A stretch of 55,493 bases of DNA from a virus (Duplodnaviria; Heunggongvirae; Uroviricota; Caudoviricetes). Position 1 is the stretch's first letter, and each line of letters starts with the position of its first letter. Shown piece after piece: positions 1,908 through 37,405 of this stretch. The position numbers and the translations under genes were made by a program. The notes under the pieces are model-generated. The model was not told where the DNA came from. It saw only the letters and a list, made by a program, of their open reading frames with translations, and ran no database searches. The stretch lies in the IMG/VR virus record IMGVR_UViG_2663763400_000006. One strand, written 5' to 3'.

Positions 1908-2005
1908 CTTTCATTAATCCCTGAATTGTTGGTTAATACGCTTGAGGGTAAATGCGAATAATAAAAAAGGAGCCTGTAGCTCCCTGATGATTTTGCTTTT
2001 CATGT

Positions 2006-4108: not shown

Positions 4109-4405
4109 TTATACCTCTGAATCAATATCAACCTGGTGGTGAGCAATGGTTTCAACCATGTACCGGATGTGTTCTGCCATGCGCTCCTGAAACTCAACAT
4201 CGTCATCAAACGCACGGGTAATGGCTTTTTTGCTGGCCCCGTGGCGTTGCAAATGATCGATGCATAGCGATTCAAACAGGTGCTGGGGCAGGCCTTTTTC
4301 CATGTCGTCTGCCAGTTCTGCCTCTTTCTCTTCACGGGCGATCTGCTGGTAGTGACGCGCCCAGCTCTGAGCCTCAAGACGATCCTGAATGTAATAAGCG
4401 TTCAT
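4109..4405 (-). CDS. gam: Gam, host RecBCD inhibitor (short form)
   Basis: 98 aa, [60 protein letters not shown]... matches the C-terminal 98 aa of lambda Gam; no long-form N-terminal extension is open upstream. Confidence 0.9.
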
Positions 4406-4543
4406 GGATAAACTCCTGAAATTTTGATGTGCGGATCCAGACAGTGCGTTAACTGCATAGTTGTTTGAATGAACTCGCTTGATTAATCAAAATGTTGGAT
4501 CACACTATGTCTTGCTCAAAATCTGATAAATAAGGTGTCTAGA

Positions 4544-4849
4544 ATGCTGATTGATAAGTTAAAGTCTTCTCCGATGTACCCAACCGCAGAAATGGGTAAG
4601 CAGTCGAAAAAGAATCATTGGTATGTAAGGGAAAAGGGGAGTGATCAACCGCAAGACCAGACCTGGAGAGCTTGGTGGGAATCTCGCTCGCTTGGCAAAG
4701 GCCATATCAATTGGAGATCTACATGCGTAGCAGAAAATGTACTCGATCCATTCAATCCGCCATCTCGGTTTGAGGTTGATTTCAAAGCCCCTGATGGGAG
4801 TATCTACAACCTTGAATTTGCTTTGGCTCCACACGGCCCAAACAAGTGA
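4544..4849 (+). CDS. Hypothetical protein (possible moron, opposite to early-left transcription)
   Basis: ORF with ATG at 4544 preceded by AAGGTG Shine-Dalgarno (the ORF-track start at 4535 is GTG); no recognisable domain. Confidence 0.4.
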   Translation: MLIDKLKSSPMYPTAEMGKQSKKNHWYVREKGSDQPQDQTWRAWWESRSLGKGHINWRSTCVAENVLDPFNPPSRFEVDFKAPDGSIYNLEFALAPHGPNK

Positions 4850-4853
4850 GTAG

Positions 4854-5144
4854 TTAGTGGCTCAGACCACCGCCAGTACCATTCAGGTAAACCTCCACGA
4901 GCAAATCTTTTGTGTACGTTCGTTCGATGCCGCGATGCAAGTAAAGCCGACCGCGCAAATTAGCTGATGCCGTCCAGGTACCATCTTTGTGTTTAACCAG
5001 CATACCTGGCCGGACGGCACCGCGATTAACGGTCTGAGTTCCGTAATGTTGATGAACCATAAAAACTCCTGCCCGTAAGCTGGGCTGCTGAACATATAGA
5101 GACTTCTGCGCGTATTCAGGCGGTGGATGGCCGCCGGTTGTCAT
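4854..5144 (-). CDS. Hypothetical protein, first ORF downstream of the putative pL/OL
   Basis: 96-aa ORF in the position where lambda has N, but it lacks an arginine-rich N-terminal motif. Confidence 0.3.
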   Translation of the reverse strand: MTTGGHPPPEYAQKSLYVQQPSLRAGVFMVHQHYGTQTVNRGAVRPGMLVKHKDGTWTASANLRGRLYLHRGIERTYTKDLLVEVYLNGTGGGLSH

Positions 5145-5340
5145 AACTAAGCCGCCTCGTTGAAGCGACTGAGGTATGAAGTGTTGAGTTGATTTCAGCT
5201 GGTCACACCGACGTTAACGCGTCCGCTTCACCCCTCGCACTCCCCGGAGCCTGCTGAAATTCAAGCTGCGGATCTAAGCGGTCATCGCAACGGCGAATCA
5301 GGTGGTTGCCGTATCGTTGTGTTGTTGCGACATGGTGATA

Positions 5341-5385
5341 ATAGCTATTGCTATTAGTGATATCAATACTTATTGCTATTGATTG
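5341..5385. promoter_or_regulatory. Putative OL operator/pL region
   Basis: Clustered TTGCTATT / ATAGCTATT motifs (atagctattgctattagtga...tattgctattg); the same motif recurs in the cI-cro intergenic region. Confidence 0.4.
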
Positions 5386-5504
5386 ATGCATTTTGATATT
5401 AACTGTTTGATAGCAAAAGGAATTAATTTTGTGACTTGCATCGCATAGCGATAACTGAAGCGGGGGTTATGGTGGTTTTTTGAACGGTGTGTGATGAGGG
5501 GAGG

Positions 5505-5535
5505 CAAAAGAAAACCCGGCACGACGGCCGGGGAA
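5505..5535 (-). terminator. Rho-independent terminator ending the cI operon
   Basis: Inverted repeat cccggc/gccggg with a U-rich tail when read on the minus strand, immediately 3' of the 287-aa gene. Confidence 0.5.
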
Positions 5536-5536
5536 A

Positions 5537-6400
5537 TCATTTCGCATCTACAATAAATAACCTGTTTATCTGGCCTTTTTTAACAGTAGCCTTTGCGGTT
5601 ATAGTGAATACTGCAGATGGATCACCTTTGGTTGATATATATGCACTAAGAGCTCTAATATACGGGTTATTCTTCTTTCCTGCAGCTGGATCGCTAATTT
5701 CAGCAGTGATTCTCTTTTTTGAGTCATCACCATCTAAAATTATTTTAGCTGTCATATTTTGTGCATCAAATTCTGTAAGAAAAGCACGATACTCACGAAG
5801 ACCGAGAACTTCATCATCATCAAGCCTATCAATTTCAGCTTTATCTCTCTCATTAACTTTTAGAAGGCAGCCGTCAACATTTGTTGCAACACTTATCTGA
5901 TCGCAAGTATTACCAATAGGTGATACTGCCTGCCTTACAGAGGGGCGAAGCTCTACAGCCATTCGGTCAATCAAAGAGATCAACTTATCAATGGTTCCAG
6001 CATCCTTGTTTCCTAGTGCCTCTATGGCCTTTTCAAGTGACTGCTGCAAAGCTTTCATTTCATCTTTCTTGTTAGAATTTCTCGCAAAAATATATTGTAG
6101 TATTGCGCCAAGTATAGTTGCGGCGATCCCCGAGAACAACTGGTTCTGAGTGGCGAAGTTAAGAACTGCTTCAAGAGTAAAGCAGTTAGCTTTTGCTTCG
6201 CGTGCGTAAACCTTAACTTCCTGATAATTAATGTATTTACTATATTTTTGTGTAACAGAGAAAGAAGCTGCTGTTGAGAGAACTTTAGAAAAACCCTTTA
6301 GGGATTCTCCTAGGCAGTTCAAATCTATTTCATGATTTAAAGCATCTTTTCCGTCATACCTAAGAGAGATTTTTATATCCTGTAAAGCGTCACAATCCAT
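5537..6400 (-). CDS. Unknown 287-aa protein with one central hydrophobic segment, in the rexAB position
   Basis: ATG at 6400; AT-rich codon usage unlike flanking phage genes; hydrophobic segment [19 protein letters not shown]; co-directional with and 3' of cI, followed by a terminator. Confidence 0.6.
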
Positions 6401-6466
6401 AAATCGCTCTCGTCTAATTCTAATTAAATTTACTATCCCCTAAACGACTCATCAGCACAGTGCTGA

Positions 6467-7159
6467 TTATCCATGTTTCCTGTACGTCTGGGGCATGCTC
6501 CCAATAACCTTACCGAAGATGAACACCCGGTTCATCTCGTCTTTCTCGATCGGGTCCCACGGTGAGTAGCTCTTGTTATCAGAGATAACCAGCAGCTTAT
6601 CCTTCATCATTTGCAGGCGCTTTACATGGGCGGTGTCGTCGTACAGAAACGCATAGATGCCATCACCGTCGAAAGATTTAACCGTGATATCAACGAACAG
6701 CAGATCACCTGGTTCGATCGTTCCTGACATGCTGTCACCACGCACGTTAATGATGCGGATATTTTCCGCCTTCCTGCCATCGAACATGTGACGAGCATCG
6801 TCAAACGAGTACTCAACCGAGCGTAGGACTTCTACAAACTCACGGTTGATGACTCCCGGCCCAGCACTGACTTCTATATCAAGAACGTCAATCTTGAAGT
6901 ATTTGGAATGGTTGACAGTAGGCTTCCCTGATTGTTGACCGTCATTTCTCATCGGGCCTATGCCTGATGAGAGCCACTCTGTTCGAACACCCAATGCATT
7001 AGCTATTTCAACAATTTTTGTTGAGCCGCGCGCGTTGCCGCTTGTCAGTCTCCAGATTGTGGGTTGAGCTACGCCAGACGCCTTTGCAAGAGCGCCTTGA
7101 GACATCCCAGATTGTTCCATCGCTAGGTTTAAGCGATCAGCAAGAGTTTCTTTTTTCAT
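6467..7159 (-). CDS. cI: CI-type repressor (XRE helix-turn-helix plus S24 LexA-like autopeptidase)
   Basis: N-terminal HTH (MSQGALAKASGVAQPTIWRL), C-terminal peptidase motifs (VRGDSMSGTIEPGDLLFVD ... HVKRL); start taken at MKKETL (7159), the ORF could extend to 7216. Confidence 0.85.
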   Translation of the reverse strand: MKKETLADRLNLAMEQSGMSQGALAKASGVAQPTIWRLTSGNARGSTKIVEIANALGVRTEWLSSGIGPMRNDGQQSGKPTVNHSKYFKIDVLDIEVSAGPGVINREFVEVLRSVEYSFDDARHMFDGRKAENIRIINVRGDSMSGTIEPGDLLFVDITVKSFDGDGIYAFLYDDTAHVKRLQMMKDKLLVISDNKSYSPWDPIEKDEMNRVFIFGKVIGSMPQTYRKHG

Positions 7160-7170
7160 AAGTTTTAATT

Positions 7171-7240
7171 TATACGCTTGCGTATTGATGGTCAAAACAC
7201 GTTTTGCTATTGCCATGGTTAATACGCATTGCTATTATTC
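7171..7240. promoter_or_regulatory. Putative OR operators with divergent pRM/pR
   Basis: cI-cro intergenic region holding repeated ATACGC..GCGTAT and TTGCTATT motifs shared with the putative OL. Confidence 0.45.
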
Positions 7241-7269
7241 ATTCATTGTAATACCAATAGGAATTGATA

Positions 7270-7497
7270 ATGACAAATCAAACCATTCAACTCGCAATCA
7301 GTATTACAGGTAGTCAAAAACGACTGGCAGATCTATGCGGTGTAGCCCAGCCCACTGTTTGGCGTTGGCTACACGGTGGCGGAATTGATGCCCGCTATGT
7401 AATGAAAATTGTCTCAGCCACTGGTGGAAAGATTAAGCCAGCAGATATTCGTCCCGACCTCGCACCATTGTTTAACGCGAGTAATTCTGCCGCCTAA
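7270..7497 (+). CDS. cro: Cro-like HTH repressor
   Basis: Small HTH protein (LADLCGVAQPTVWRWLHGG) divergent from cI; ATG at 7270 with AGGA Shine-Dalgarno. Confidence 0.7.
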   Translation: MTNQTIQLAISITGSQKRLADLCGVAQPTVWRWLHGGGIDARYVMKIVSATGGKIKPADIRPDLAPLFNASNSAA

Positions 7498-7521
7498 TCT
7501 GCGGCGTTAACTGATAAGGCG

Positions 7522-8067
7522 ATGATTATGCAACCACTTACATACCAACAGACTAGCGGATTTAGCCCGACTGCGGTGATAAATCGTTCTCAAATAAAAC
7601 AGGTGCCAGGCCACGAAAAAATTCGTGATGCCGTCCGCGCCTGGTCTGCTGAAGATAATCAGGATGTAGTTGCCGCACTCATTGTGAATGAGTATCGAGC
7701 ACAGGGCGGCGGCACCATCGATTTTCCTGATGATGTCAGTCGTGCACGCCAGAAGCTGTTCCGCTTCCTCGATAACAAATTCGATTCTGAAAAATACCGA
7801 AATAACGTGCGTGAACTGACCCCGGCAATTCTGGCGGTACTACCGCTGGAATATCGCGGCCACCTGGTTGAGCAGGATAGCTTCATGGCTCGGCTGGCTG
7901 AAATGGAAAAGGAACTCAGTGAGGCAAAGCAGGCGGTCATTCTCAACGCACCACGCCACCAGAAACTGAAGGAGATGAGTGAAGGCATTGTGTCGATGTT
8001 TCGAGTGGACCCGGATCTGGCTGGTCCATTGATGGCGATGGTCACCACCATGCTGGGGGCAATATGA
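7522..8067 (+). CDS. CII-position regulatory protein, possibly YdaT/DUF1019-like
   Basis: 181-aa ORF directly after cro and before O; family assignment is from recollection only. Confidence 0.35.
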   Translation: MIMQPLTYQQTSGFSPTAVINRSQIKQVPGHEKIRDAVRAWSAEDNQDVVAALIVNEYRAQGGGTIDFPDDVSRARQKLFRFLDNKFDSEKYRNNVRELTPAILAVLPLEYRGHLVEQDSFMARLAEMEKELSEAKQAVILNAPRHQKLKEMSEGIVSMFRVDPDLAGPLMAMVTTMLGAI

Positions 8068-8153
8068 CAGGTTCAAAAATGGCGAAAGTCGGTCTGCGGG
8101 AACAGAACCGACTTTCAGGTGCAAATCGTAACACACTCATTGCGGGAGGAATT

Positions 8154-9083
8154 ATGGCAAACACTGCTGAGATATTCAATTTTCCAGTGCCGGATGCGGC
8201 ACAAAAGGAGCCGCGCGTGGCAGATCTCGATGATGGTTATACGCGCATTGCAAATGAGTTGCTGGAAGCTGTAATGCTGGCCGGATTAACACAGCACCAG
8301 CTTCTGGTCTTCCTGGCTGTCATGCGCAAAACATATGGCTTTAATAAAAAACTGGATTGGGTGAGCAACGAGCAACTTTCCGAGTTGACCGGGATATTGC
8401 CGCACAAGTGTTCTGCTGCAAAAAGTGTTCTGGTAAAGCGTGGGATTTTTATTCAGAGCGGGCGGAATATCGGCATTAATAATGTGGTCAGTGAATGGTC
8501 AACATTACCCGAATCAGGTAAGAAAAATAAAGTTTACCTGAAAGAGGTAAATTTACCTGAATCAGGTAAAAAAAGTTTACCCAAATCAGGTAAAGACGTT
8601 TACCCGAATCAGGTAAACACAAAAGACAAACTAACAAAAGACAATATAAAACCTTTTTCGTCCGAGAATTCTGGCGAATCCTCTGACCAGCCAGAAAACG
8701 ACCTTCCTGTGGAGAAACCAGATGCTGCAATTCAGAGCGGCAGCAGGTGGGGGACAGCAGAAGACCTGACCGCCGCAGAGTGGATGTTTGACATGGTGAA
8801 GACCATCGCGCCATCAGCCAGAAAACCGAATTTTGCAGGGTGGGCTAACGATATCCGCCTGATGCGTGAACGTGACGGACGTAACCACCGCGACATGTGC
8901 GTGCTGTTCCGCTGGGCATGCCAGGACAACTTCTGGTCCGGTAACGTGCTAAGTCCGGCCAAACTCCGCGACAAGTGGACCCAACTCGAAATCAACCGTA
9001 ACAAGCAACAGGCAGGCGTGACAGCTAGCAAACCAAAACTCGACCTGACAAACACAGACTGGATTTACGGGGTGGATTTATGA
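8154..9083 (+). CDS. O: Replication initiator O
   Basis: C-terminal two-thirds near-identical to lambda O as recalled (SENSGESSDQPENDL...FAGWANDIRLMRERDGRNHRDMCVLFRWACQDNFWSGNVLSPAKLRDKWTQLEINRNK); ATG 8154 with GGGAGGA Shine-Dalgarno. Confidence 0.9.
   Translation: MANTAEIFNFPVPDAAQKEPRVADLDDGYTRIANELLEAVMLAGLTQHQLLVFLAVMRKTYGFNKKLDWVSNEQLSELTGILPHKCSAAKSVLVKRGIFIQSGRNIGINNVVSEWSTLPESGKKNKVYLKEVNLPESGKKSLPKSGKDVYPNQVNTKDKLTKDNIKPFSSENSGESSDQPENDLPVEKPDAAIQSGSRWGTAEDLTAAEWMFDMVKTIAPSARKPNFAGWANDIRLMRERDGRNHRDMCVLFRWACQDNFWSGNVLSPAKLRDKWTQLEINRNKQQAGVTASKPKLDLTNTDWIYGVDL
8505..8600. repeat. Origin iterons inside O (ori-lambda-like)
   Basis: Four direct repeats of the form atcaggtaa...tttacc(c/t)gaa inside the O coding sequence, followed by an A-rich tract. 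Confidence 0.8.
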
Positions 9084-27256: not shown

Positions 27257-27365
27257 TTAGCATGGCTTTCTGAGGCTTTCGTGTAGTTGCTGGTTTTTAC
27301 ACTTAATCTTTTGATAATAAAGAATAAGTTTATCTGGTGCTTTCACTGAATTTTCCTCGTTATCT

Positions 27366-27403
27366 GTGTGTTGCAATCATCTCTGTATTGCAGCTTGTAT
27401 TGC
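27366..27403. repeat. TGTATTGCA-type direct repeats upstream of the island integrase (possible arm sites)
   Basis: ctgtgtgttgcaatcatctctgtattgcagcttgtattgc; a similar pair occurs near the right end at about 38014-38040. Confidence 0.4.
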
Positions 27404-27418
27404 TTTTTGGGGCTAAAA

Positions 27419-28654
27419 ATGGCTGGCGAGAACAAACTGAGCGACAAAGCGCTTAAAGGATATCTGGGGAAACCCAGAGAAAAGCAGATCACCATTGCTG
27501 ATGGAAAGGGGCTTTCTATTCGTGTGAGTACTAAAGGGGCTGTGAGCTTTGTTTTCTTCTACAGGTTAGCAGGTGGCCGGGCTGCTCCGGTCTGGCTAAC
27601 GTTGGGTAAATATCCTGATATGTCACTCAAACAGGCAAGGGAAAAGCGCGACGAGTGCCGTGGTTGGTTGGCTGACAAACGTGATCCGCGTATCCAGATT
27701 AAGATTCAGGCTGAAGAACGCTTAAAGCCGGTCACTGTGGAGGATGCACTAAATTACTGGTATGAAAATTACTGTAAGGTGCGTCGTAAAACTCATGCTG
27801 TAACGCTTGGCAGATTTCGAAAGCATATCTTTCCCTATATCGGTCATTTGCCCGTAAATGACACTCACCTATATGAATGGCTGGACTGTTTTGACCGAAT
27901 TAAACGTAATGCACCAGTTATGGCGGCGTATGTTTTTTCTGACACTAAATTAGCTCTTCGTTTTTGTCGGGTACGCCAGTACGCGACGTGTGATGCTTTA
28001 AAGGATTTGCGCATGAGTGATGTGGGGCAGATTGCAGGTAAGCGGGATCGGGTTCTGGATGAAGCCGAACTCGGCCAGCTCTGGAAGGCAATTTTTGTCG
28101 AGCCTGATTTAAAACTAATGTCTGAATACACGCGAAAAATGTTTGTGCTTTGTACAGTATTTGGATGTCGAATGAGTGAAGCCCGATTATCAGAATGGAG
28201 CGAATGGGATCTCGAAAGTTGGGTTTGGACTGTACCAAAAGATCACTCAAAAACTGGTGTTGAAATCGTCAGACCAGTACCTGAAATTCTACGACAGTGG
28301 GTAACGGATGTTCACGAAGAGACAAAACATACTGGTTATGTGCTGGGAAGTCTGCGAATTAGAGAAAGCGTAAGCAAGATTGGGGGGAAAATCGGTAAAC
28401 GTTTGGGCCATGAAAAACAATGGTCACTACACGACCTTAGAAGAACGCTATCTACTCATCTAAGTGATCTCGGTGTTGAATTTTATGTAGTAGAACAACT
28501 GTTAGGCCATGCGCTACCTGGCGTGGCAGGTGTTTACAACCGGAGTAAGTTTATGGCTAAAAAACTGGATGCTCTGGAACTCTGGACTACATATCTCAAT
28601 AGCATCGCAGGTGCTGATTCAAAAGTGACAATCCTCAAACAAAAGGTTGGTTAA
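27419..28654 (+). CDS. int: Island tyrosine integrase (P4/CP4-57 type)
   Basis: MAGENKLSDKALKG...GKGLSIRVSTKG N-terminus typical of P4-family integrases; C-terminal HDLRRT...LGHA...YNRSK catalytic motifs. Confidence 0.85.
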   Translation: MAGENKLSDKALKGYLGKPREKQITIADGKGLSIRVSTKGAVSFVFFYRLAGGRAAPVWLTLGKYPDMSLKQAREKRDECRGWLADKRDPRIQIKIQAEERLKPVTVEDALNYWYENYCKVRRKTHAVTLGRFRKHIFPYIGHLPVNDTHLYEWLDCFDRIKRNAPVMAAYVFSDTKLALRFCRVRQYATCDALKDLRMSDVGQIAGKRDRVLDEAELGQLWKAIFVEPDLKLMSEYTRKMFVLCTVFGCRMSEARLSEWSEWDLESWVWTVPKDHSKTGVEIVRPVPEILRQWVTDVHEETKHTGYVLGSLRIRESVSKIGGKIGKRLGHEKQWSLHDLRRTLSTHLSDLGVEFYVVEQLLGHALPGVAGVYNRSKFMAKKLDALELWTTYLNSIAGADSKVTILKQKVG

Positions 28655-28655
28655 C

Positions 28656-28883
28656 ATGAAAAAAATGGCAATTGTTGATAAAAAGGGTCTGGAGTACATT
28701 CCTAACATTGACCGAATGATCCGTGAGAAAGAATGTCGGGAGCTAACCACTCTTGCGAACAGCACACGCTGGAAGCTGGAGAAGGAAGGAAAATTTCCTA
28801 AGCGGATCAAGATTGGTTCCACTGCTGTTGCATATCGTCTTTCAGAAGTGCAGGCATGGATTCGAGGTGAGTGGGTAGTTTAA
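28656..28883 (+). CDS. alpA: AlpA-family excisionase/transcriptional regulator
   Basis: MKKMAIVDKKGLEYIPNIDRMIREKECRELTTLANSTRWKLEKEGKFPKRIKIGSTAVAYRLSEVQAWI, AlpA-like HTH; directly follows the integrase. Confidence 0.7.
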   Translation: MKKMAIVDKKGLEYIPNIDRMIREKECRELTTLANSTRWKLEKEGKFPKRIKIGSTAVAYRLSEVQAWIRGEWVV

Positions 28884-28952
28884 ATTATCTCAGAATAAAA
28901 TATTATGAATTACTGATTTGAGAATTTGTACTCAAATCAGTAATAACATTCT

Positions 28953-29489
28953 TTATAAGAGATTAAATCCAAATAAAGAGTAATCATATACCGGGGTGCA
29001 TTGCATTCCACTGAATATGCTGATGTTTTTTTCTGTTTCTATCCTTTTTTCAATAAGTTGTTGTATATTTTTACAGTACAATTTGTGTGTGATGTTATTA
29101 TCGTAAGCCTGATATAGCAACGTCAATGTTGACGCTAGGAAACATACAGATAAAATTAAAGTAACATATGCGGTTTTTTTATTTTTTGTCCATGATCTAT
29201 TTGTTTGTGAAATATAAAGAATTCTGATGTGGATAATGGTGAGAGACAATAGCAGGCCACTCAATAAAATAAGTATTGGGTTTGCGTATTTTATTAATGG
29301 TTGAGAGCAAAAAACTATTATAGCTCCTGTGACTGCGTATGAGAAAAAGGAGTAATTAAACTTCTTACTCCTTCTCTCAAGTATTTTAATTTCATCTTGT
29401 GTGGGGGTTTTAGATGCCTCTAATATAAGTTTATTGAATGTTTCTGTTATCTTGTTTTTTGTGTTTGTGGCTATTTTTTTTAGATTCAT
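28953..29489 (-). CDS. Unknown multi-pass membrane protein (island cargo)
   Basis: 178-aa ORF, extremely AT-rich, three to four hydrophobic helices; antisense to int and alpA. Confidence 0.5.
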   Translation of the reverse strand: MNLKKIATNTKNKITETFNKLILEASKTPTQDEIKILERRSKKFNYSFFSYAVTGAIIVFCSQPLIKYANPILILLSGLLLSLTIIHIRILYISQTNRSWTKNKKTAYVTLILSVCFLASTLTLLYQAYDNNITHKLYCKNIQQLIEKRIETEKNISIFSGMQCTPVYDYSLFGFNLL

Positions 29490-29839
29490 AGCATTCTAAC
29501 TCCCTTAACTTATTTATTACTTTCTCTTTATGATAAGAGAGGGGAATGACTTGGTAAAGTGATTTGTCATTAATAATGATAATCCTTGCGATAAATATTT
29601 CTGCAAGTTATTTATCTGTTTGTTGCTATCTTGTTAAGCGTTGGGTGTGGTTTATGTTTGGAGCGACTTTATTTAATCGTGATTTTATGGATTTATATTT
29701 ATATCCTGTAAGATAAGCGCATGTTAGTTCAGGAGTAGTGTCAGATAAAATTATTCGGAGTAGAACTACCTTTTCTGTTTATTGCCAGTATTTACATAGC
29801 AATGCGCCGTAGTTACTCACATCACGGCGCTGATACTAA

Positions 29840-30142
29840 TTATTCAGATTCTTTGGCTTTACGCCGCTGGAGTTCTTCACGAGCGACGGCTACGAGTTGC
29901 CCGATTTCCTCCGCTGCCTTGATGCCGATTTGTTCGACCTTAGCTAAGGCATCCAGTGAAGACACGAGGGGATTTTCTCCGCTTCCTTCTGCCTGGCGGC
30001 GGGCGATCTCACCGCGCATGGCGGTTACTATGAATCCGGCGTTGCTCTCGCCGTCCAGTTTTACGGATTCCATGCCCTCCATAACATCGTGGGGAACCCT
30101 GATCGTTGTCATTTGCGATTTTGCATTTTTGTATACAGACAT
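29840..30142 (-). CDS. Putative ribbon-helix-helix regulator (candidate island repressor)
   Basis: 100-aa ORF (MTTIRVPHDVMEGMESVKL...), divergent from the rightward island operon across a repeat-containing intergenic region. Confidence 0.4.
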   Translation of the reverse strand: MSVYKNAKSQMTTIRVPHDVMEGMESVKLDGESNAGFIVTAMRGEIARRQAEGSGENPLVSSLDALAKVEQIGIKAAEEIGQLVAVAREELQRRKAKESE

Positions 30143-30149
30143 AGTTAAT

Positions 30150-30260
30150 CACCAATTTGTTATGTGTATATCACTATACACAAAAGTGATATATAAAAAC
30201 ACTTGCAATGTATATCACCACAATATAATGTATATCTCACATTATGGTCGCTATGTATCT
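30150..30260. promoter_or_regulatory. Island divergent promoter/operator region with TGTATATCAC-type repeats
   Basis: tgtgtatatcactatacacaaaagtgatatataaaaacacttgcaatgtatatcaccacaatataatgtatatctcaca: four or more copies of TGTATATC(A/T)C in both orientations. Confidence 0.45.
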
Positions 30261-30350
30261 CACAATGATCGATTCATAAAAACGACGAAACCCGGCAGTG
30301 CGCGAACACTAACCGGGCTTCTAACCAAACCGTTAAACGAGGTAACGATT

Positions 30351-30716
30351 ATGGCTGGAACACAGCATACCCAAACTCACCCTAAATTTATATACACCTT
30401 TCTGGCACTACACCACGACCGCATGGCAGATGGAGCAACTACGGTACATGTAGCCGCTGACACGCTGGTTGATGCCCGCAAGATGGTTAAGGAGATGGGC
30501 TATACTGCGGCTTTCTGGAAAGGGCGTGAAGAAAACACGCTGTTTATTCAGAAATGCGAAAACAATTTCATCTGGCGTTTTATCGCCCTGAGTACGGCAC
30601 AACCGCGCGTGATTCACATCGTGGCCACCAGCGAACAGGAAGCCCGCCAGCAATCCCCGGCTGGTTGCGTGAGGGTATTCGCCGCCCGTATTCGTCAGGA
30701 GGTATGCCGTGCTTAA
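30351..30716 (+). CDS. Hypothetical protein, first gene of the rightward island operon
   Basis: 121-aa ORF beginning MAGTQHTQTHPKF; the ORF-track entry 29802..30716 is this gene with a spurious upstream extension. Confidence 0.4.
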   Translation: MAGTQHTQTHPKFIYTFLALHHDRMADGATTVHVAADTLVDARKMVKEMGYTAAFWKGREENTLFIQKCENNFIWRFIALSTAQPRVIHIVATSEQEARQQSPAGCVRVFAARIRQEVCRA

Positions 30717-30894
30717 AACCTTCCGTGTATTTGCCCGAGCGGTTAACCCACGAGGCCACACAATTGGTATCACTCAGAACGTGAAGGCTGTTAATGTTCA
30801 GACGGCTATTGCTGTGGTGAGAAGCGAATCATCAGAATATGGCTTATCACAAGTCATTATTTCAGCAGTGTATGAATTAAAAGAGGTGCATTAA
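30709..30894 (+). CDS. Hypothetical small protein
   Basis: 61-aa ORF, tightly packed with neighbours. Confidence 0.3.
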   Translation: MLKTFRVFARAVNPRGHTIGITQNVKAVNVQTAIAVVRSESSEYGLSQVIISAVYELKEVH

Positions 30895-31085
30895 TGCAGG
30901 AAATTACATTACACGAAGCCGCTGAACGTGCGCACCAGACAGAAATTATTTGCCGCCTTCTTGAGGTATACCCGAACAAAATTACAGATGCTGATATATC
31001 CGCACTGGCGAGCCTACTGGCGCGTCTTTCGGGAAGTGTCGCTAGTTTTTTGATTGAGGAAGAAAGTAAGCTGGTGGGGGATTAA
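30894..31085 (+). CDS. Hypothetical small protein
   Basis: 63-aa ORF, start overlaps the previous stop. Confidence 0.3.
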   Translation: MQEITLHEAAERAHQTEIICRLLEVYPNKITDADISALASLLARLSGSVASFLIEEESKLVGD

Positions 31086-31307
31086 ATGAATACAGAACGG
31101 GAAGTCTTTTTTAAATTGTTAGCATGTGCAGAAAGTTCATTAACTTTAAATAATTCAGCAAAAGCAATATTAAATATGTGGCTTGATTGCATAAATGACA
31201 ATGAAGATGCAAATATTGCTTATGGCCTGTTGTCACTTATTGATGAAGCAGCAGAAAAACTCAATGACGCAATAAATAGTGCCCTGTTATCAAATAAGTC
31301 GAGTTAA
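31086..31307 (+). CDS. Hypothetical small protein
   Basis: 73-aa acidic ORF. Confidence 0.3.
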   Translation: MNTEREVFFKLLACAESSLTLNNSAKAILNMWLDCINDNEDANIAYGLLSLIDEAAEKLNDAINSALLSNKSS

Positions 31308-31324
31308 GTCGAGGAATAAATAAT

Positions 31325-31624
31325 ATGGAAATGAAAAATTCTGGCTTTATTGCCAGCGGCCCCGCTCGGCCTGAATTTATGAACGGCGATATTTACCGCG
31401 ATAAATACGGCGGCACGGTAACGATTAAAGGCGTGGCAGAACGGCGCATCACTTACCGCCGTGAGGGGTATAGCTATGACTGCGTGATGCCTGTTTATCA
31501 GTTCCGGCGTGATTTTTCCCTGGTATATGCCGCACCTCGCAGTAAGCCCACCAGCAGGGAAAAAGCGCGGGGAAACATCCAGAAAATGAAAAGCATGATT
31601 AACGCATTCAGGGGCAAAAAATGA
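31325..31624 (+). CDS. Hypothetical small protein
   Basis: 99-aa ORF overlapping the primase start. Confidence 0.3.
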   Translation: MEMKNSGFIASGPARPEFMNGDIYRDKYGGTVTIKGVAERRITYRREGYSYDCVMPVYQFRRDFSLVYAAPRSKPTSREKARGNIQKMKSMINAFRGKK

Positions 31625-33372
31625 AACTGGCACCGAACTTAAAAAAACAGCCACGCGACAGACTGACAGAGGTAATCATCTTTGCAGGTAGTGATGCGTG
31701 GAGCCATGCGAAAGAGTGGCAGGAATGGGCGGGTAAACATATTGCCGCCGACGATGTGCCGCCTGTCGTGCTGGCTGATGAGCAACTGAAAAACATCATC
31801 GATTACCGGATCATTGATGAAGATCGTCAGTGTGTGCGTGTTTACCGCGCAGGACATATCACAGAGCACAGCATGACGCAGATTGTTACGTTACTGGCTG
31901 TGGCTGGAGTGAAGACCGTACACGAATACGCGGGGATTACTGACACCAGCCCCGTGGATTTATCCGACCAGTTGCCGCGACTCAAAGAGGAATGCGAGCG
32001 TGGGGAAAGTCTGGTGCTTAATCTTCCGACGAAGCAAAAGGCGCAACTTTCACAGATGGCAGACAGTGAACGTGCACAACTACTTGCCGATCGCTTTGAT
32101 GGTGTGTGTGTTCATGCAGAAAGTGAAATCGTCCACGTATGGCGCGGCGGGGTATGGTGTCCGGTCAGCACAATGGAGCTGAGCCGCGAAATGGTGGCGA
32201 TCTATTCAGAGCACAGGGCCACGTTCAGCAAACGTGTAATCAATAACGCCGTGGAAGCGTTAAAAGTTATTGCCGACCCCATGGGGGAGCCGTCCGGTGA
32301 TTTACTACCGTTCACTAATGGTGTGCTTAACCTGAAAACGGGGGATTTTTCTCCGCACTTACCGGAGCACTGGAGCACCACGCACAATGGCATTGAGTAC
32401 ACGCCACCAGTAGCAGGGGAAAACATCCGCGATAATGCGCCAAATTTCCATAAATGGCTTGAACATGCTGCAGGAAAAGACCCGCGCAAGATGATGCGTA
32501 TATGTGCCGCGTTATACATGATTATGGCGAACCGCTACGACTGGCAGATGTTCATTGAGGCCACCGGAGACGGGGGAAGCGGTAAGAGTACATTTACCCA
32601 TATTGCCACCCTGCTTGCTGGCAAACAGAACACCGTAAGCGCAGAGATGACATCACTCGATGATGCAGGAGGGCGCGCGCAGGTTGTCGGGAGTCGTCTT
32701 ATCGTCCTTGCCGATCAGCTGAAATATACGGGGGAAGGCACGGGCATCAAGAAAATCACGGGAGGCGATCCCGTTGAAATTAACCCGAAATATGAGAAGC
32801 GATTCACGACGATAATAAGGGCGGTGGTACTGGCAACCAATAACGACCCGATGATCTTTACCGAACGGGCCGGAGGTGTGTCACGCCGTCGGGTGATTTT
32901 CCGGTTCGACAACATTGTAAGGGAGGACGAAAAAGACAAGGAATTACCGGAAAAGATAGCGGCAGAAATCCCCGTAATTATCCGCCGCTTGCTGGCTAAT
33001 TTTGCTGACCCTGAAAAGGCACGGGCTTTATTACTGGAACAGCGTGACGGTGATGAAGCTCTGGCAATAAAGCAGCAAACGGATCCGGTTGTTGAGCTTT
33101 GCGCGGCGCTGGAGTTTCTGGAGGAAGCTCGTGGGCTAATGATGGGCGGTGGTGGTGACACCGTGAAGTACACGACCAGAAACAGCCTTTACCGTGTCTA
33201 TATGGCCTTCATGGCATATACAGGAAAGGGGAAATGTTTGAGCGTGAATGAGTTCGGAAAGGCTATGAGGTCAGCGGCGAAAGTTTACGGATATGAATAT
33301 ATTACGCGAAAAGTTAAGGGAGTCACGCAGACCAACGCAACGACTACTGATGATTGCGATGCGTTTTTATAA
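31621..33372 (+). CDS. Primase-helicase replication protein (D5_N / P4 alpha-like)
   Basis: 583 aa with Walker A GDGGSGKST and downstream helicase-like motifs. Confidence 0.8.
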   Translation: MKLAPNLKKQPRDRLTEVIIFAGSDAWSHAKEWQEWAGKHIAADDVPPVVLADEQLKNIIDYRIIDEDRQCVRVYRAGHITEHSMTQIVTLLAVAGVKTVHEYAGITDTSPVDLSDQLPRLKEECERGESLVLNLPTKQKAQLSQMADSERAQLLADRFDGVCVHAESEIVHVWRGGVWCPVSTMELSREMVAIYSEHRATFSKRVINNAVEALKVIADPMGEPSGDLLPFTNGVLNLKTGDFSPHLPEHWSTTHNGIEYTPPVAGENIRDNAPNFHKWLEHAAGKDPRKMMRICAALYMIMANRYDWQMFIEATGDGGSGKSTFTHIATLLAGKQNTVSAEMTSLDDAGGRAQVVGSRLIVLADQLKYTGEGTGIKKITGGDPVEINPKYEKRFTTIIRAVVLATNNDPMIFTERAGGVSRRRVIFRFDNIVREDEKDKELPEKIAAEIPVIIRRLLANFADPEKARALLLEQRDGDEALAIKQQTDPVVELCAALEFLEEARGLMMGGGGDTVKYTTRNSLYRVYMAFMAYTGKGKCLSVNEFGKAMRSAAKVYGYEYITRKVKGVTQTNATTTDDCDAFL

Positions 33373-33389
33373 AAAATGGCAATGGTTAT

Positions 33390-33640
33390 CTACCTTGTCT
33401 ACCTGACTGAAATAAAATACTTTTATTTCAATGTATTAATGCAGGTAGATAACTATTTTTCACTGTCTACCTGTTATCTACCTTATCTACCCATTTTTGT
33501 AGACAGGTAAGGAGACGGGTAGAGATGAGGTAGACAGCTATTTGGGGCTGTCTACCTCCCTGAAACCCGCGCCATTACTGGCCTGATAACTAATCAGGTA
33601 GACAAGGTAGACAAGGTGGTGGTGCACAAAAAACTTTTTA
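33390..33640. repeat. Island replication origin iterons
   Basis: Ten or more copies of GGTAGACA / TGTCTACC in both orientations immediately downstream of the primase-helicase gene. Confidence 0.65.
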
Positions 33641-33661
33641 AACGAGGGGGTAAAAATAAAA

Positions 33662-33904
33662 ATGCACACATCAGGAAAACTGAACAAACATATAAAGCCA
33701 CATTACCGCGCCCTTGATATGGCTGAACACTGGCTAAGGGTGGCGATTAAGGCAATAGACCGCAACGCCGGGGAAGGATACGCGAAAGCACATCCCGAAC
33801 TGATAAGCGCATTCATGACAACGGCGGCTGCAAACTTTGCCACGCTGACCGAACGGGAGATTGCCGAAGCGGAGGAAGTGACAACCATCAATATTAAGTC
33901 CTGA
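33662..33904 (+). CDS. Hypothetical protein
   Basis: 80-aa ORF between the origin and ssb. Confidence 0.3.
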   Translation: MHTSGKLNKHIKPHYRALDMAEHWLRVAIKAIDRNAGEGYAKAHPELISAFMTTAAANFATLTEREIAEAEEVTTINIKS

Positions 33905-33915
33905 GAGCAGGCAGC

Positions 33916-34365
33916 ATGACGGCGCAAATAGCAGCTTACGGGCGGCTGGTGGACGACCCACAGGTAAAACATACCAGCAAGGGAACACCCATGACACTGG
34001 CACGGATGGCGGTATCTTTGCCATGCAGCCAGGCAGATGACGGAACGGCGACGATGTGGTTATCTGTGCTGGCGTTTGGCAGACAAGCCGACGCGCTGGC
34101 AAAGCATCACAAAGGCGAACTCCTGAGCGTGGCGGGTAATATGCAGGTGAGCCAGTGGAGCGGACAGAACGGGGAAACGCGGCAGGGCTGGCAGGTTATC
34201 GCAGACAGCGTAATCAGTGCCAGAACGGTGCGACCGGGCGGCAAAAAAGGTCAACAGGGGCAGGCTACTGATGCACTGAACAGAGCAAAACAACAGGCAG
34301 ATCAGCAAGGAAGCCATCCACCAGTGGGAGATAATGAGCAATGGGGAGATGATATTCCGTTTTAA
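33916..34365 (+). CDS. ssb: Single-stranded DNA-binding protein
   Basis: OB-fold-like N-terminal domain and Gly/Gln-rich tail ending in the acidic motif DDIPF. Confidence 0.7.
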   Translation: MTAQIAAYGRLVDDPQVKHTSKGTPMTLARMAVSLPCSQADDGTATMWLSVLAFGRQADALAKHHKGELLSVAGNMQVSQWSGQNGETRQGWQVIADSVISARTVRPGGKKGQQGQATDALNRAKQQADQQGSHPPVGDNEQWGDDIPF

Positions 34366-34575
34366 ATATTGCCAATAAAAAAGGCCGGAAAAAATATATT
34401 TTCCGGCATGCTACATAAATCCCGACCAAAGGGAGTGAAGATATTAACACTAATTATCCGCGCTGAAGTTGTCATCCCAAAACTTTATACAACATTGCAC
34501 TCGGTTGCATGTGTTAGCATGACAAATATCGGTGATAGCATATATCCACAATTATTTTTAATGAATGTAAAGAGG

Positions 34576-35622
34576 ATGAGTATGGTTGATTTATATTCGC
34601 CTGCCCAGCTTGTGCAGGTGGCTAATGCAGAAGAGGTGCAAAAAAAATTAAATGCATTGTTTACCAGTTTGTTTTTCACTCGCTCGGTAATGTTTGAATC
34701 AAGAGACATTATTCTTGATACAATCGACGATCCAAATATCCCAATTGCAGCGTTTTGTTCTCCTATGGTGGGTAGTAAAGTTTCACGTGACGAAGGGTAC
34801 GAATCAAAGACAATTCGTCCAGGCTATATGAAGCCGAAAAGCAGCATTGATCCAAATAAGTTAGCTGTGCGCCCTGCTGGTGTATCACCTGAGCAATACA
34901 ATGCTTTTGGAGCGCGTAATATTAAAGTTAAACAGGCGATTGTAAATCAGGCTAAAGCTATTCGTGCACGTATTGAATGGCTTGCCGTTCAGGCAATCAC
35001 AACGGGGAAAAATATCATTGAGGGCGATGGCATTGAACGCTATGAACTGGACTGGAATATAAAACCACAAAATATTATCACGCAGTCCGGCGGTGCTGAG
35101 TGGTCAGGTAAGGATAAAGAAACTTTTGATCCAAATGATGATATTGAGAGCTACGCAGAATTTAGTGAGGGCGTCACTAATATCATCATTATGGGCGGTA
35201 ATGTATGGAAGAAATACCGTTCATTCAGAGCGATAAAAGAGGCTCTGGATACCCGTCGTGGTTCTAATTCCGAACTGGAAACGGCCCTTAAAGACCTTGG
35301 TGATTCGGTGAGTTTTAAAGGGTATATGGGCGATGTTGCGATTGTTGTATACAGCGGGCGTTATACCGACGAGGACGGAACTGAAAAACATTTCCTTGAT
35401 CCTGATTTGATGGTGCTTGGCAATACGGCTCTTCAGGGGATTGTCGCCTATGGCGGTATTCAGGATCCGGAGCTAATCCGAATGGGGCTGACTAAAGCCG
35501 AACTTGCACCGAAAAACTATATTGTGCCTGGTGATCCGGCTATTGAATATGTGCAGACACATTCAGCACCACAGCCAATACCGGCCCGCATCAATCGTTT
35601 TGTTACCGTTCGCATTGGCTAA
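34576..35622 (+). CDS. Island-encoded major capsid protein homologue (divergent gpE)
   Basis: TQSGGAEWSGKDKETFDPNDDIESYAEF...RSFRAIKEALDTRRGSNSELETALKDLG...YMGDVAIVVYSG aligns with lambda E (TQSGGTEWSKRDKSTYDPTDDIEAYAL...FRSFKAVKEKLDTRRGS.SELETAVKDLG...GDVAIVVYSG); ATG 34576 with AAGAGG Shine-Dalgarno. Confidence 0.8.
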   Translation: MSMVDLYSPAQLVQVANAEEVQKKLNALFTSLFFTRSVMFESRDIILDTIDDPNIPIAAFCSPMVGSKVSRDEGYESKTIRPGYMKPKSSIDPNKLAVRPAGVSPEQYNAFGARNIKVKQAIVNQAKAIRARIEWLAVQAITTGKNIIEGDGIERYELDWNIKPQNIITQSGGAEWSGKDKETFDPNDDIESYAEFSEGVTNIIIMGGNVWKKYRSFRAIKEALDTRRGSNSELETALKDLGDSVSFKGYMGDVAIVVYSGRYTDEDGTEKHFLDPDLMVLGNTALQGIVAYGGIQDPELIRMGLTKAELAPKNYIVPGDPAIEYVQTHSAPQPIPARINRFVTVRIG

Positions 35623-35631
35623 GGGGGAGCA

Positions 35632-35973
35632 ATGGCTACTCATTACACTGAACTCATGGCTGGCACTGAAGCACTGGTGACTACGCTGGGGATATTTTCA
35701 GCTAATAAAGGGGTAATTCCTGCATTTACGCCACTGATGCAGGAAGATGCAACAGGTGCACTGGTGGTATGGGATGGTTCGAGCGTAGGTAAAGCGGTTT
35801 ATGTTTCCGCTGTACAAATCGACACCGCGAAAAAAACACAGGCTCAGGTCTATAAGACAGGTGTCTTAAATGTTGATGCTCTGAACTGGCCTGAGTCTGT
35901 AAAAGAACTGTCAGTAAAGATTGCAGCGTTTGTTGGCTCAGGTATTTCTGTTCAGCCGCTGGCTCGTGTGTAA
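35632..35973 (+). CDS. Island-encoded decoration protein homologue (gpD-like)
   Basis: FTPLMQEDATGALVVWDGSSVGKAV and VYKTGVLNVDALNWPE align with lambda D ([41 protein letters not shown]). Confidence 0.65.
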   Translation: MATHYTELMAGTEALVTTLGIFSANKGVIPAFTPLMQEDATGALVVWDGSSVGKAVYVSAVQIDTAKKTQAQVYKTGVLNVDALNWPESVKELSVKIAAFVGSGISVQPLARV

Positions 35974-35984
35974 AGGGGGATACA

Positions 35985-36368
35985 ATGCAGAATCATTACA
36001 ATGACCTTAAGCCAATTGCCGAAATGATGTATCCGGATCCAGCAGTAGAGGAATTAAAGGCTATTGCTGACAAAATGCGTTTAAGCGAGCGTCTTGTTGA
36101 TATGAATCAGGTGATGGAACTTACAACCCTGAGTCGTCGTACACTGCTAAACCTTGAAGCACGTGGAGAGTTCCCCGAACGCGTGCAGGTTACGGAAGGG
36201 CGTAAGGCCTGGTATTTAAGCGAAGTGATCGACTGGATAAACAATATTCCGCGCGCTTCTGAATATTGCCGCGTACCTGTCCCAAAAAAGCCAGATGCGG
36301 CGCTATGCCTCAAGATTGAGCGTGTACGCCGCAATGCGCGGGATGGTCGCTATAAGCTGATTGGTTGA
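35985..36368 (+). CDS. AlpA-like HTH protein (second copy in the island)
   Basis: LTTLSRRTLLNLEARGEFPERVQVTEGRKAWYLSEVIDWI resembles the AlpA-family HTH signature. Confidence 0.45.
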   Translation: MQNHYNDLKPIAEMMYPDPAVEELKAIADKMRLSERLVDMNQVMELTTLSRRTLLNLEARGEFPERVQVTEGRKAWYLSEVIDWINNIPRASEYCRVPVPKKPDAALCLKIERVRRNARDGRYKLIG

Positions 36369-36379
36369 TGAAATTAGGG

Positions 36380-36470
36380 CCCGTTCTGGCTGGCGGGTCC
36401 TTTCCGGCGATCCAGAACGTTACGGGGCGGCGACCTCGCGGGTTTTCGCTATTTATGAGCATTTTTAGGG
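36380..36470. other. Second cos site (island), cosN conserved with the prophage cos
   Basis: gggtcctttccggcgatccagaacgttacggggcggcgacctcgcgggttttcgctatttatga is nearly identical to 20840-20910; downstream (cosB) sequence differs. Confidence 0.75.
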
Positions 36471-36584
36471 GACTGGTGGTGGTTTTGTTGTTCGCTATAT
36501 CTGTATGAATAATAAGAGAAAAACACAATCAACACACCAACCTGAAACAGTAATTAAGTTGTGGTATCAATGAAATTGCACCTG

Positions 36585-37112
36585 ATGAACAAAAAAAACA
36601 TGGCAAAAAGTTGCCGTGTAAGCGCCACTGCGTTCGATAAGTGGGGAGTGATTCCCGTCGAGCGTAAGGGCCGCGAGGCGTTTTATGATGTCGCCAGTGT
36701 AATAGATAATCGGGTTAACAATGCAATCAGCCAGATTACAAACGAAACGGGCGAGATTGATGATGATGAACTCCTACGAGTCAGGATCAGATTGCTGACA
36801 GCACAGGCAGAGGCGCAGGAGCTTAAAAACGAGCGCGAACGCGGCGACGTTATTGATACAGCGTTTTGTATATACGTGCTTTCAAAACTGGCGAGTCAGA
36901 TTTCTTCAATCATGGACAGCCTGCCGCTTGCCATGACAAGGAAGTTTCCCGACATGAAGCCGTCTATGCTGGATGGACTGAAAAAAGAAGTTATCAGAGC
37001 CTGTAACGCATGCGCAAAACTTGACGAAAACATACCGCTGATGCTGTCCGATTATCTGATGGAAACTGCCGGAAACGTACCGGATAAGTTGCAGCTGAAT
37101 AAAGATAAGTAA
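36585..37112 (+). CDS. Island small terminase homologue (Nu1-like)
   Basis: LLTAQAEAQELKNERERGDVIDTAFCIYVLSKLASQISSIMDSLPLAMTRKFPDMK aligns with prophage Nu1 LTRAQADAQELKNARDSAEVVETAFCTFVLSRIAGEIASILDGIPLSVQRRFPELE; start taken at MNKKNMAK. Confidence 0.75.
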   Translation: MNKKNMAKSCRVSATAFDKWGVIPVERKGREAFYDVASVIDNRVNNAISQITNETGEIDDDELLRVRIRLLTAQAEAQELKNERERGDVIDTAFCIYVLSKLASQISSIMDSLPLAMTRKFPDMKPSMLDGLKKEVIRACNACAKLDENIPLMLSDYLMETAGNVPDKLQLNKDK

Positions 37113-37123
37113 CGTAGTACGCT

Positions 37124-37405
37124 ATGACTGAATCCGAAATACTGCGATTAATCCGCCGTGCTTGTGGAATCAGCAAGCAGCATGACGAACAGGCCACGCA
37201 GCCGGACAGCGTGATCGCCGAAAATTACGCGCGTGTTGTTGCTGATGTGATGCGCCGTGATGGTATTGAGCTTAACGGCGTGGATATGCGCGACATACGG
37301 ATCAGATTCCTTGAGTTGCTGGCATACCGTCGCCGTTCTCAACAACGAAGGGAGAGCGCGAAAAACACTTATCAGTGGAAGAAGCCGGAACGGTTGCGGC
37401 GGTAG
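37124..37405 (+). CDS. Hypothetical protein
   Basis: 93-aa basic ORF following the terS-like gene. Confidence 0.3.
   Translation: MTESEILRLIRRACGISKQHDEQATQPDSVIAENYARVVADVMRRDGIELNGVDMRDIRIRFLELLAYRRRSQQRRESAKNTYQWKKPERLRR

Follow-up and report, generated by a model that had tools for sequence, protein, structure and literature searches.

The immunity region of CP-933P carries toxin-antitoxin cargo, and its operators are built from repeats with the consensus GTTTAGTAA, which lie in 18-bp palindromes (PMC8630535). Leaderless repressor mRNA has been documented both for lambda cI and for paaR2 of CP-933P (PMC8630535). For the Salmonella P22-like phages, the ε34 genome paper predicts that the repressor of ST104 represents a specificity type of its own, reports no operator for it, and describes early antitermination of the P22 gene 24 type for related phages (PMC2629481). 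Here we analyze the immunity region of a lambdoid E. coli prophage in the IMG/VR record IMGVR_UViG_2663763400_000006, a stretch of 55,493 bp that we refer to as the window. In this region the 8-mer TTGCTATT forms two clusters that flank the operon of the repressor gene cI. With a probability of roughly 0.87, judged from comparative sequence analysis, these clusters are the left (OL) and right (OR) operators of a lambda-type lysis/lysogeny switch.

A search of both strands of the window gave exactly four copies of TTGCTATT, at 5348, 5373, 7204 and 7229. The total is unremarkable (4 versus 2.47 expected); it is the placement that is unusual. All copies lie in two AT-rich non-coding gaps (26-31% G+C), one to the left of a gene for a 287-amino-acid protein and the other between cI and cro, and they form two pairs, each with a spacing of 25 bp. 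Two such close pairs are expected from four random positions with P ~3.5e-6, and at least four copies were reached in 0 of 100,000 composition-matched shuffles of both gaps. Among the 4,547 8-mers with at least four copies, TTGCTATT is the only one with all copies in two distant, equally spaced pairs; other 8-mers with repeated close pairs are tandem iterons (the origin in the O gene, 8514-8610, and 33444-33606) or words of higher copy number. An earlier inspection of the same DNA (the sequence-only reading) had noted a shared short motif at 5341-5385 and in the cI-cro gap. This observation is confirmed: exact copies are found in these two clusters only, and a motif search across the window returned none outside them, let alone at a similar density.

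The complete site had escaped the sequence-only reading. The 8-mer represents the right, better-conserved half plus the two central bases of a 16-bp pseudo-palindrome, AATA-SS-N4-SS-TATT, with the half-site AATA(G/C)(C/G)(A/C)A. Pooling 44 half-sites from nine loci gave A(38) A(44) T(41) A(40) S S M A, positions 5-6 being mostly GC (21) or CG (12), with many sites combining both. When up to three mismatches were allowed, AATACGYATTGCTATT matched six times against 1.0 expected (0 of 100 shuffles reached six), always within the two clusters. AATASSNNNNSSTATT matched twice in the window against 0.04 expected. We also derived a weight matrix solely from the six sites of Klebsiella phage ST11-VIM1phi8.2; its 11 best window matches fall within 5340-5424 and 7171-7271, and the best match elsewhere scored 12.1 bits, less than the mean shuffle maximum of 14.2. 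A cI protein scan with one genome per species yielded six loci; the Klebsiella phage brings the number of same-type loci to seven, and five genera are represented: E. coli, the Klebsiella phage, Kluyvera (three species), Citrobacter and Raoultella. The sites in the window, together with the predicted leftward (pL), rightward (pR) and repressor maintenance (pRM) promoters, are as follows.

5338..5366, minus strand: predicted pL; -35 TTGATA (5366..5361), 17-bp spacer, -10 TATTAT (5343..5338)
5340-5355: OL1, AATAGCTATTGCTATT; the half-sites are symmetric at all six outer positions; overlaps the spacer and -10 of pL
5365-5380: OL2, AATACTTATTGCTATT; 25 bp from OL1; overlaps the pL -35 by 2 bp
5385-5400: OL3, a weak candidate, GATGCATTTTGATATT; five mismatches to the consensus; 20 bp from OL2
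7167..7195, minus strand: predicted pRM; -35 TTGACC (7195..7190), 17-bp spacer, -10 TAAATT (7172..7167)
7171-7186: OR3, TATACGCTTGCGTATT; invariant in the seven loci; without the exact 8-mer
7196-7211: OR2, AACACGTTTTGCTATT; found by matrix, mismatch search and conservation
7210..7238, plus strand: predicted pR; -35 TTGCCA, 17-bp spacer, extended -10 TGcTATTAT; start at about 7245
7221-7236: OR1, AATACGCATTGCTATT; the top-scoring site, 25.3 bits

The three OR sites start exactly 25 bp apart. The cluster is present as previously noted, and it holds three sites, not two; OR3 lacks the exact 8-mer. OR3 contains a perfect 14-bp palindrome, ATACGCTTGCGTAT, and sits between the pRM hexamers, both of which are invariant in the seven loci. 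OR2 abuts the pRM -35 (centre at about -43.5) and shares 2 bp with the pR -35; OR1 overlaps the pR spacer and -10. The cI ATG (7159) comes 7 nt after the end of the pRM -10 and has no Shine-Dalgarno sequence in front of it; the cI mRNA is therefore predicted to be leaderless, with the pRM start at or next to the ATG. On the left side, pL matches the consensus in 10 of 12 positions and would start leftward at about 5331; the positions of its -10 and -35 are kept in the seven loci. OL2 may also be read in an overlapping register (5359-5374), and the 22-bp composite ATATCAATACNTATTGCTAT at this site is kept in relatives. OL3 was named by positional homology to stronger third sites in relatives and is by itself not significant. 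The layouts of pL and pR are alike: a 16-bp site, 9 bp, a second 16-bp site and an "AT" that completes the TATTAT -10, with the -35 beginning at the last two bases of the distal site, i.e. the one farther from the -10.

The two candidate binders are encoded divergently around a 110-bp gap.

6467..7159, minus strand: cI, 230 amino acids; 434-like helix-turn-helix (HTH) with the recognition helix AQPTIWRLTSG, and an S24 autocleavage domain
7270..7497, plus strand: cro, 75 amino acids; YdaS family (YdaS/P22_Cro-like), recognition helix AQPTVWRWLHG

The cI product matches HTH_3 in Pfam with 28.3 bits (cutoff 23), and its N-terminal domain (residues 6-66) finds the solved 434 repressor domains by phmmer with E = 1.6e-5 to 2.1e-5. 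The Peptidase_S24 domain was detected with E = 1.3e-18. The motifs VSAGPG (AG), GDSM and HVKRL (VKRL) are present and conserved in the alignment of relatives; from established family knowledge we take them to be those of LexA/S24-type self-cleavage. Both the RefSeq annotation and the aligned relatives support a cI start at 7159. A 249-amino-acid version starting at 7216 was rejected, as the RefSeq start, the conserved MKKETL start and the operators upstream all favour 7159. Over 48 residues, 40% of positions are identical between cI and Cro, which have GVAQPT(I/V)WR in common, and this shared helix fits the idea that both proteins read one set of sites. Downstream of pR, the YdaS and YdaT families were identified with E = 9.6e-15 (PF15943) and 8.4e-30 (PF06254), respectively.

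Across the seven loci, OR1 to OR3 and the pRM hexamers show no change or a single-base difference at most, while the 7 variable bases of the OR2-OR1 spacer are different in every locus. A second cluster, of two to four sites, is found in each locus 1.8-2.9 kb away, beyond cI and a variable cargo, and the better half-site switches strand between loci. The cI-cro segment is also common to PhiR30_1, Perceval, 4A7, Lambda_4C10, D2, 1W and 3W (96-97% DNA identity). In the Salmonella P22-like phage ST160 the N-terminal domain of C2, which the ST160 record likens to SE1 c2 and ST104 cI, is 88% identical; its OR3 and OR2 match those of the window exactly, OR1 has a single changed base, and the OL sites belong to the same type. 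The repressors of ASU11 and SaltyDalty, 68-78% identical and with QPTIWR kept, are still accompanied by GCTATT-type palindromes.

The relatives with mixed repressor domains are the most instructive. In Kluyvera georgiana, residues 1-72 of cI are 94% identical, the C-terminal domain only 42%, and all sites are kept. The reverse combination is seen in PhiR5_1 and a Klebsiella grimontii prophage, with an N-terminal domain 52-54% and a C-terminal domain 86-95% identical (54% and 95% in PhiR5_1). Both have the helix SQAAIQKIETG instead of the AQPTIWRLTSG of the window and no AATA-type site; a different repeat of the AAAACAACC type is found at both their OR and OL. PhiR5_1 has exchanged OR as well as a 95-bp OL cassette: homology to the window breaks off at 7023 within cI and returns at 7525, and on the left its sequence equals the window up to 5330 and again from about 5426, with 95 unrelated bp in between. 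Together, the breakpoints at 7023 and 7525 and the swapped 5331-5425 argue that the immunity-specific DNA comes in two separate pieces, namely the OL cassette and a segment of the cI HTH domain, OR and cro. PhiR30_1, which has the same immunity and a different cargo, keeps the 95-bp segment nearly unchanged, with one substitution in OL2. In these comparisons the sites covary with the cI HTH domain and Cro; they do not follow the C-terminal domain of cI or the DNA on either side. A single repressor specificity acting at OL and OR, as the sequence-only reading had suggested, is supported by the overlap with the promoters, by conservation in five genera and by this covariation with the HTH domain. 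Three further features belong to the same regions.

5331..5425, no strand: OL cassette, a 95-bp immunity-specific segment, replaced as a whole in the heteroimmune PhiR5_1
5409..5424, plus strand: conserved extra site, GATAGCAAAAGGAATT; RATASC-N4-GGAATT; 15.7 bits; counterpart at 7250-7265
7250..7265, plus strand: conserved extra site, AATACCAATAGGAATT; lies in the 5' untranslated region of cro and takes in its Shine-Dalgarno sequence; 16.5 bits

The two extra sites lie on the same strand and are kept in all seven loci, the left one beyond OL3. Two side observations concern module boundaries. The N-terminal (specificity) and C-terminal (cleavage, oligomerisation) domains of cI (6,467-7,159) recombine independently, and the breakpoint against PhiR5_1 near 7023 falls in the inter-domain linker. 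Also, the stretch of about 110 bp that separates the OL cassette from the cargo gene (5,427-5,535, with the terminator listed below) is kept despite different immunity and cargo; it acts as a fixed recombination joint for the swapping of OL and cargo modules.

The following mechanism would be consistent with this arrangement. A dimer of the 230-amino-acid cI would bind the 16-bp site through its 434-like HTH, and the YdaS-type Cro would bind the same sites. In the lysogen, cI at OR1 and OR2 would block pR and cI at OL1 and OL2 would block pL, and from OR2, centred at about -43.5, it would activate pRM. The leaderless cI mRNA from pRM would extend through the 287-amino-acid cargo gene to a terminator at about 5515-5532, and at high repressor level OR3 would serve to turn pRM off. 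RecA-stimulated S24 self-cleavage would relieve repression, and Cro would then act on the same sites in the lytic direction. Binding of cI and Cro, with immunity specificity residing in the HTH domain plus the operators, would be strongly supported by the covariation of the sites with the HTH domain and by the natural cassette exchange in PhiR5_1. Binding, occupancy order, cooperativity, OL-OR looping, pRM activation and the leaderless start are what we infer; the sites themselves, their exclusivity and conservation, their overlap with predicted promoters and their covariation with the HTH domain are what the sequences show.

Several points weigh against this interpretation. The promoter calls are consensus matches that are no commoner in the window than in shuffles (6 versus 5.8 expected), and their weight derives from position and conservation. 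The conservation of OR1/OL1 and OR2/OL2 could in part be due to the overlapping -10 and -35 hexamers. OL3 is weak in the window, and the two extra sites do not fit the three-operator scheme of lambda. Most sites are asymmetric, with one AATAGC and one AATACG half, which makes the exact contacts uncertain. The searched literature yielded no binding experiment for this specificity, and a full-text literature search for the operator strings yielded no phage paper.

Among the alternatives, the one that survives best is that the repeats are duplicated promoter cores, pL and pR being copies of one promoter conserved for RNA polymerase. TTGCTATT does supply the TATT of the -10 at OR1 and OL1 and the TTG of the -35 at OR2 and OL2, and the shared layout of pL and pR would be explained. 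A promoter copy by no means accounts for OR3, however, which is a perfect palindrome between the pRM hexamers and no copy of pR. Also, the conserved 16-mers reach well past the hexamers and are two-fold symmetric, their better half flips strand between loci, and the heteroimmune PhiR5_1 has unrelated sequence in their place along with a different HTH. We consider this explanation quite improbable.

Still less credit can be given to a regulator other than cI/Cro as the main binder, be it the CII-equivalent YdaT or the host proteins IHF (integration host factor) or Fis. The regions are AT-rich (26-31% G+C), and at 7264-7281, spanning the cro start codon, there is an inverted repeat of YdaT type, TTGATAATGACAAATCAA, with one mismatch to the YdaT site TTGATTN6AATCAA (consensus from PMC9986795). 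It is the one near-perfect site in a scan with the YdaT consensus, whose matches in the window are no more numerous than expected by chance, and relatives without YdaT do not keep it. The YdaT consensus is, moreover, unrelated to AATA-N8-TATT. The Klebsiella phage and ST160 have CII/C1 of the lambda or P22 type instead of YdaT, yet keep the sites, whereas PhiR5_1 keeps the ydaT gene (96% identity from 7525) without them. Finally, chance alone might have gathered an AT-rich 8-mer in intergenic gaps of similar composition, and the unremarkable total would agree with this. That idea is effectively refuted by the gap shuffles, by the placement of the best matrix matches, by the equal spacing of both pairs and by sites that are kept across genera and covary with the repressor.

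We return to the operator interpretation, under which pL would open an early operon with the following leader.

5145..5331, minus strand: pL leader, about 187 nt, non-coding; runs into kil (4854..5144)

The leader is kept, with more than 96% conservation, in phages that differ in immunity, and its folding is no better than that of shuffles (z = +0.27). Between the predicted pL start (about 5331) and the kil ATG (5144) we found no N-like open reading frame (ORF) and, by family searches, no plausible ORF at all. No boxA was found near pL or pR, its overall counts being equal to chance, and Rfam gave nothing relevant for the whole window at gathering thresholds or for 4300-8300 in E-value mode. 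The lack of an N gene or a boxA/boxB nut site downstream of pL, which the sequence-only reading had remarked on, is thereby borne out by ORF, boxA and Rfam searches. A put RNA was looked for in the leader at the level of sequence and energy, and there was no similarity to HK022 putL or the putL-like element of HK639. On the rightward side the cro-ydaT gap is 24 bp only and therefore leaves no room for nutR and tR1. In a terminator scan, the leftward direction has one convincing signal a long way downstream (1985..1967), and the rightward direction has no strong one ahead of Q. The simplest reading would be that early transcription needs no dedicated antiterminator, with Rho-dependent sites lying outside the reach of this test.

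Two candidates in this region were rejected. A 62-amino-acid ORF (5203..5391) starts upstream of pL and has no family match. The 27-nt block TTATGACAACCGGCGGCCATCCACCGC at 5,122-5,148 recurs unchanged in phi80, directly behind N and tL1A, and in HK639, whose record annotates its hairpin as a terminator. As a nut- or terminator-like element it was dismissed, for it is more simply the start of the Kil ORF, and its hairpin in the window has no T-run. This ORF comprises 96 codons (4854..5144); PHROG 294 covers residues 20-95, and RefSeq annotates a shorter version of 68 amino acids.

A more far-reaching idea, which we regard as doubtful, is that this prophage family runs both early operons without N/nut or a recognisable put RNA, the conserved leader and the extra sites, neither of which fits the lambda scheme, forming an undescribed regulatory layer. 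Such a layer could consist in control of cro translation by the repressor or Cro, in a transcription roadblock or in a new cis-acting processivity element. The mixed AATAGC/AATACG half-sites might likewise be a way for cI and Cro to rank sites differently.

The interval between cI and OL holds one gene and one terminator.

5537..6400, minus strand: gene for a 287-amino-acid protein, DUF7946 plus DUF7947; homologous to gene 40A of phi80; occupies the rexAB position as cargo
5515..5532, minus strand: intrinsic terminator, CCCGGCCGTCGTGCCGGG followed by a T-run; ends the transcription unit of cI and the 287-amino-acid gene

The gene is co-oriented with cI, starts 66 bp past it and lies between cI and OL. 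The protein is 62% identical to that of phi80 gene 40A, which the phi80 record places between cI and the annotated CI operators (OL) with pL. The terminator (5532..5515) is the only good intrinsic one of the region and is kept in PhiR5_1 despite its different cargo. That the 287-amino-acid gene and cI belong to the immunity region, another proposal of the earlier inspection, agrees well with the location between cI and OL, the terminator at the 3' end and the position of 40A in phi80. In relatives with the same or a similar switch the slot is occupied by two hypothetical proteins, ASCH, HipA/HipD, GevT/GevA (as annotated) or a ParA-like protein. Because relatives carry these other genes in the slot, the gene is to be seen, on comparative grounds, as variable cargo in the rexAB position. 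Functional hints are sparse: PADLOC gave a weak partial match only (PDC-S42, E = 1.5e-4), the NCBIfam match was below cutoff, and a literature search on DUF7946 and 40A found nothing. An AlphaFold model (pLDDT 76.8) found nothing at E < 0.05 in a Foldseek search against the PDB, and weakly suggests a C-terminal part that resembles an oligonucleotide/oligosaccharide-binding (OB) fold. At 6,451-6,467, directly 3' of the cI stop and ahead of the 287-amino-acid gene, there is a palindrome, ATCAGCACAGTGCTGAT, without a T-run; it could be a processing or attenuation hairpin.

With regard to the genomic context, positions 5100-7600 match several E. coli chromosomes at 100% identity, and 9987-55493 match E. 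coli strain N68 at 99.4-99.9%. The N68 gene order in RefSeq runs intD, exo, bet, gam, kil, the 287-amino-acid gene, cI, cro, ydaT, O, P, ren, emrE, ybcK, Q, lysis, and head and tail genes. The prophage is a fuller form of the DLP12-type prophage at a DLP12-type locus. Several neighbouring features were noted. Five to six TCAGGTAA(A) iterons at 8,514-8,610 lie within the O gene, the expected lambda-type origin. Between kil and gam, and opposed to the pL operon, a 101-amino-acid gene (4,544-4,849, plus strand; phrog_16212) is likely inserted cargo. By mapped N68 annotation, a protein with a BstA C-terminal domain and a serum-survival lipoprotein of the iss/bor type are located at about 12.9-13.9 kb and 19.8-20.1 kb, respectively, and emrE and ybcK are also within the prophage. 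BstA is a known abortive-infection defence family. At about 27,257-38,137, according to the RefSeq annotation of the 99.9%-identical N68, an element of about 10.9 kb interrupts the major capsid gene of the prophage. It carries genes for an integrase, an HTH regulator, an Icd-like protein, a primase, a single-stranded DNA-binding protein, a major capsid, a head-decoration and a small-terminase protein. It looks like a capsid-forming satellite, similar to phage-inducible chromosomal islands (PICI), inserted in a potential helper; with the capsid gene so disrupted the prophage would be defective. In the gap adjoining the satellite primase gene, a cluster of GGTAGA(T/C)A / CTGTCTAC repeats (33,444-33,606) probably represents the iterons of the satellite replication origin.

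In comparison to known systems, the switch meets the structural definition of lambda except for N/nut and the type of CII. As in lambda, cI and cro are divergent, three OR sites overlap pR and pRM with OR2 adjoining the pRM -35, and a second operator cluster lies on a leftward pL about 1.8 kb away. Likewise, cargo between cI and OL is ended by a terminator, the repressor is of the autocleavable S24 type and the cI mRNA is probably leaderless. Unlike in lambda, the operator is a 16-bp AATA-N8-TATT instead of the 17-bp TATCACCGCCGGTGATA type, the repressor has a 434-like HTH_3, the sites are evenly spaced at 25 bp, Cro is of the YdaS and the CII-equivalent of the YdaT family, no N gene, nutL or nutR was found, and extra conserved sites are present at 5409-5424 and 7250-7265.

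The 434 repressor is the closest solved relative of the cI N-terminal domain. As in the 434 operators (ACAA-N6-TTGT), each half-site has four conserved outer bases around a variable centre, and repressor and Cro share recognition-helix residues. The differences are the helix, QPTIWR here versus the aligned QQSIEQ in the 434 repressor at an identity of only about 30%, and an operator of 16 instead of 14 bp with different bases. CP-933P and Rac (PaaR2 or RacR, YdaS, YdaT) share the YdaS-type Cro and the YdaT-type CII-equivalent with our locus, and CP-933P also has analogues of OL, OR, pL, pR and pRM and a leaderless repressor gene. Its PaaR2/YdaS operators, however, are GTTTAGTAA repeats in contrast to AATA-SS-N4-SS-TATT, and CP-933P would therefore be heteroimmune to this prophage.

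The same specificity class is represented by the c2 type of ST104, SE1 and ST160 and by E. coli 4A7, Lambda_4C10, Perceval and PhiR30_1, for none of which we found a published operator mapping in the literature. The Cro of ST160 is of the same type as ours (helix KQPTVWRWLHG versus AQPTVWRWLHG). The ST104/SE1/ST160-type Salmonella phages and the 4A7 group of E. coli phages differ from the window in their cI-OL cargo and left arms. Our results thus provide a precise operator map for a widespread enterobacterial immunity type without published operators that we could find. This type spans E. coli DLP12-type prophages, 4A7, PhiR30_1, Perceval and Salmonella ST160 and SE1Spa, and extends to prophages of Klebsiella, Kluyvera, Citrobacter and Raoultella. 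The map makes homo- and heteroimmunity between such phages predictable from sequence and marks the cI-OL interval as a slot for cargo expressed in lysogens. The residual oddities are the mixed half-sites, the extra conserved sites and the N-less early operons. Conceptually, nothing in the map goes beyond the lambda paradigm, and the design of the switch is that of the textbook.

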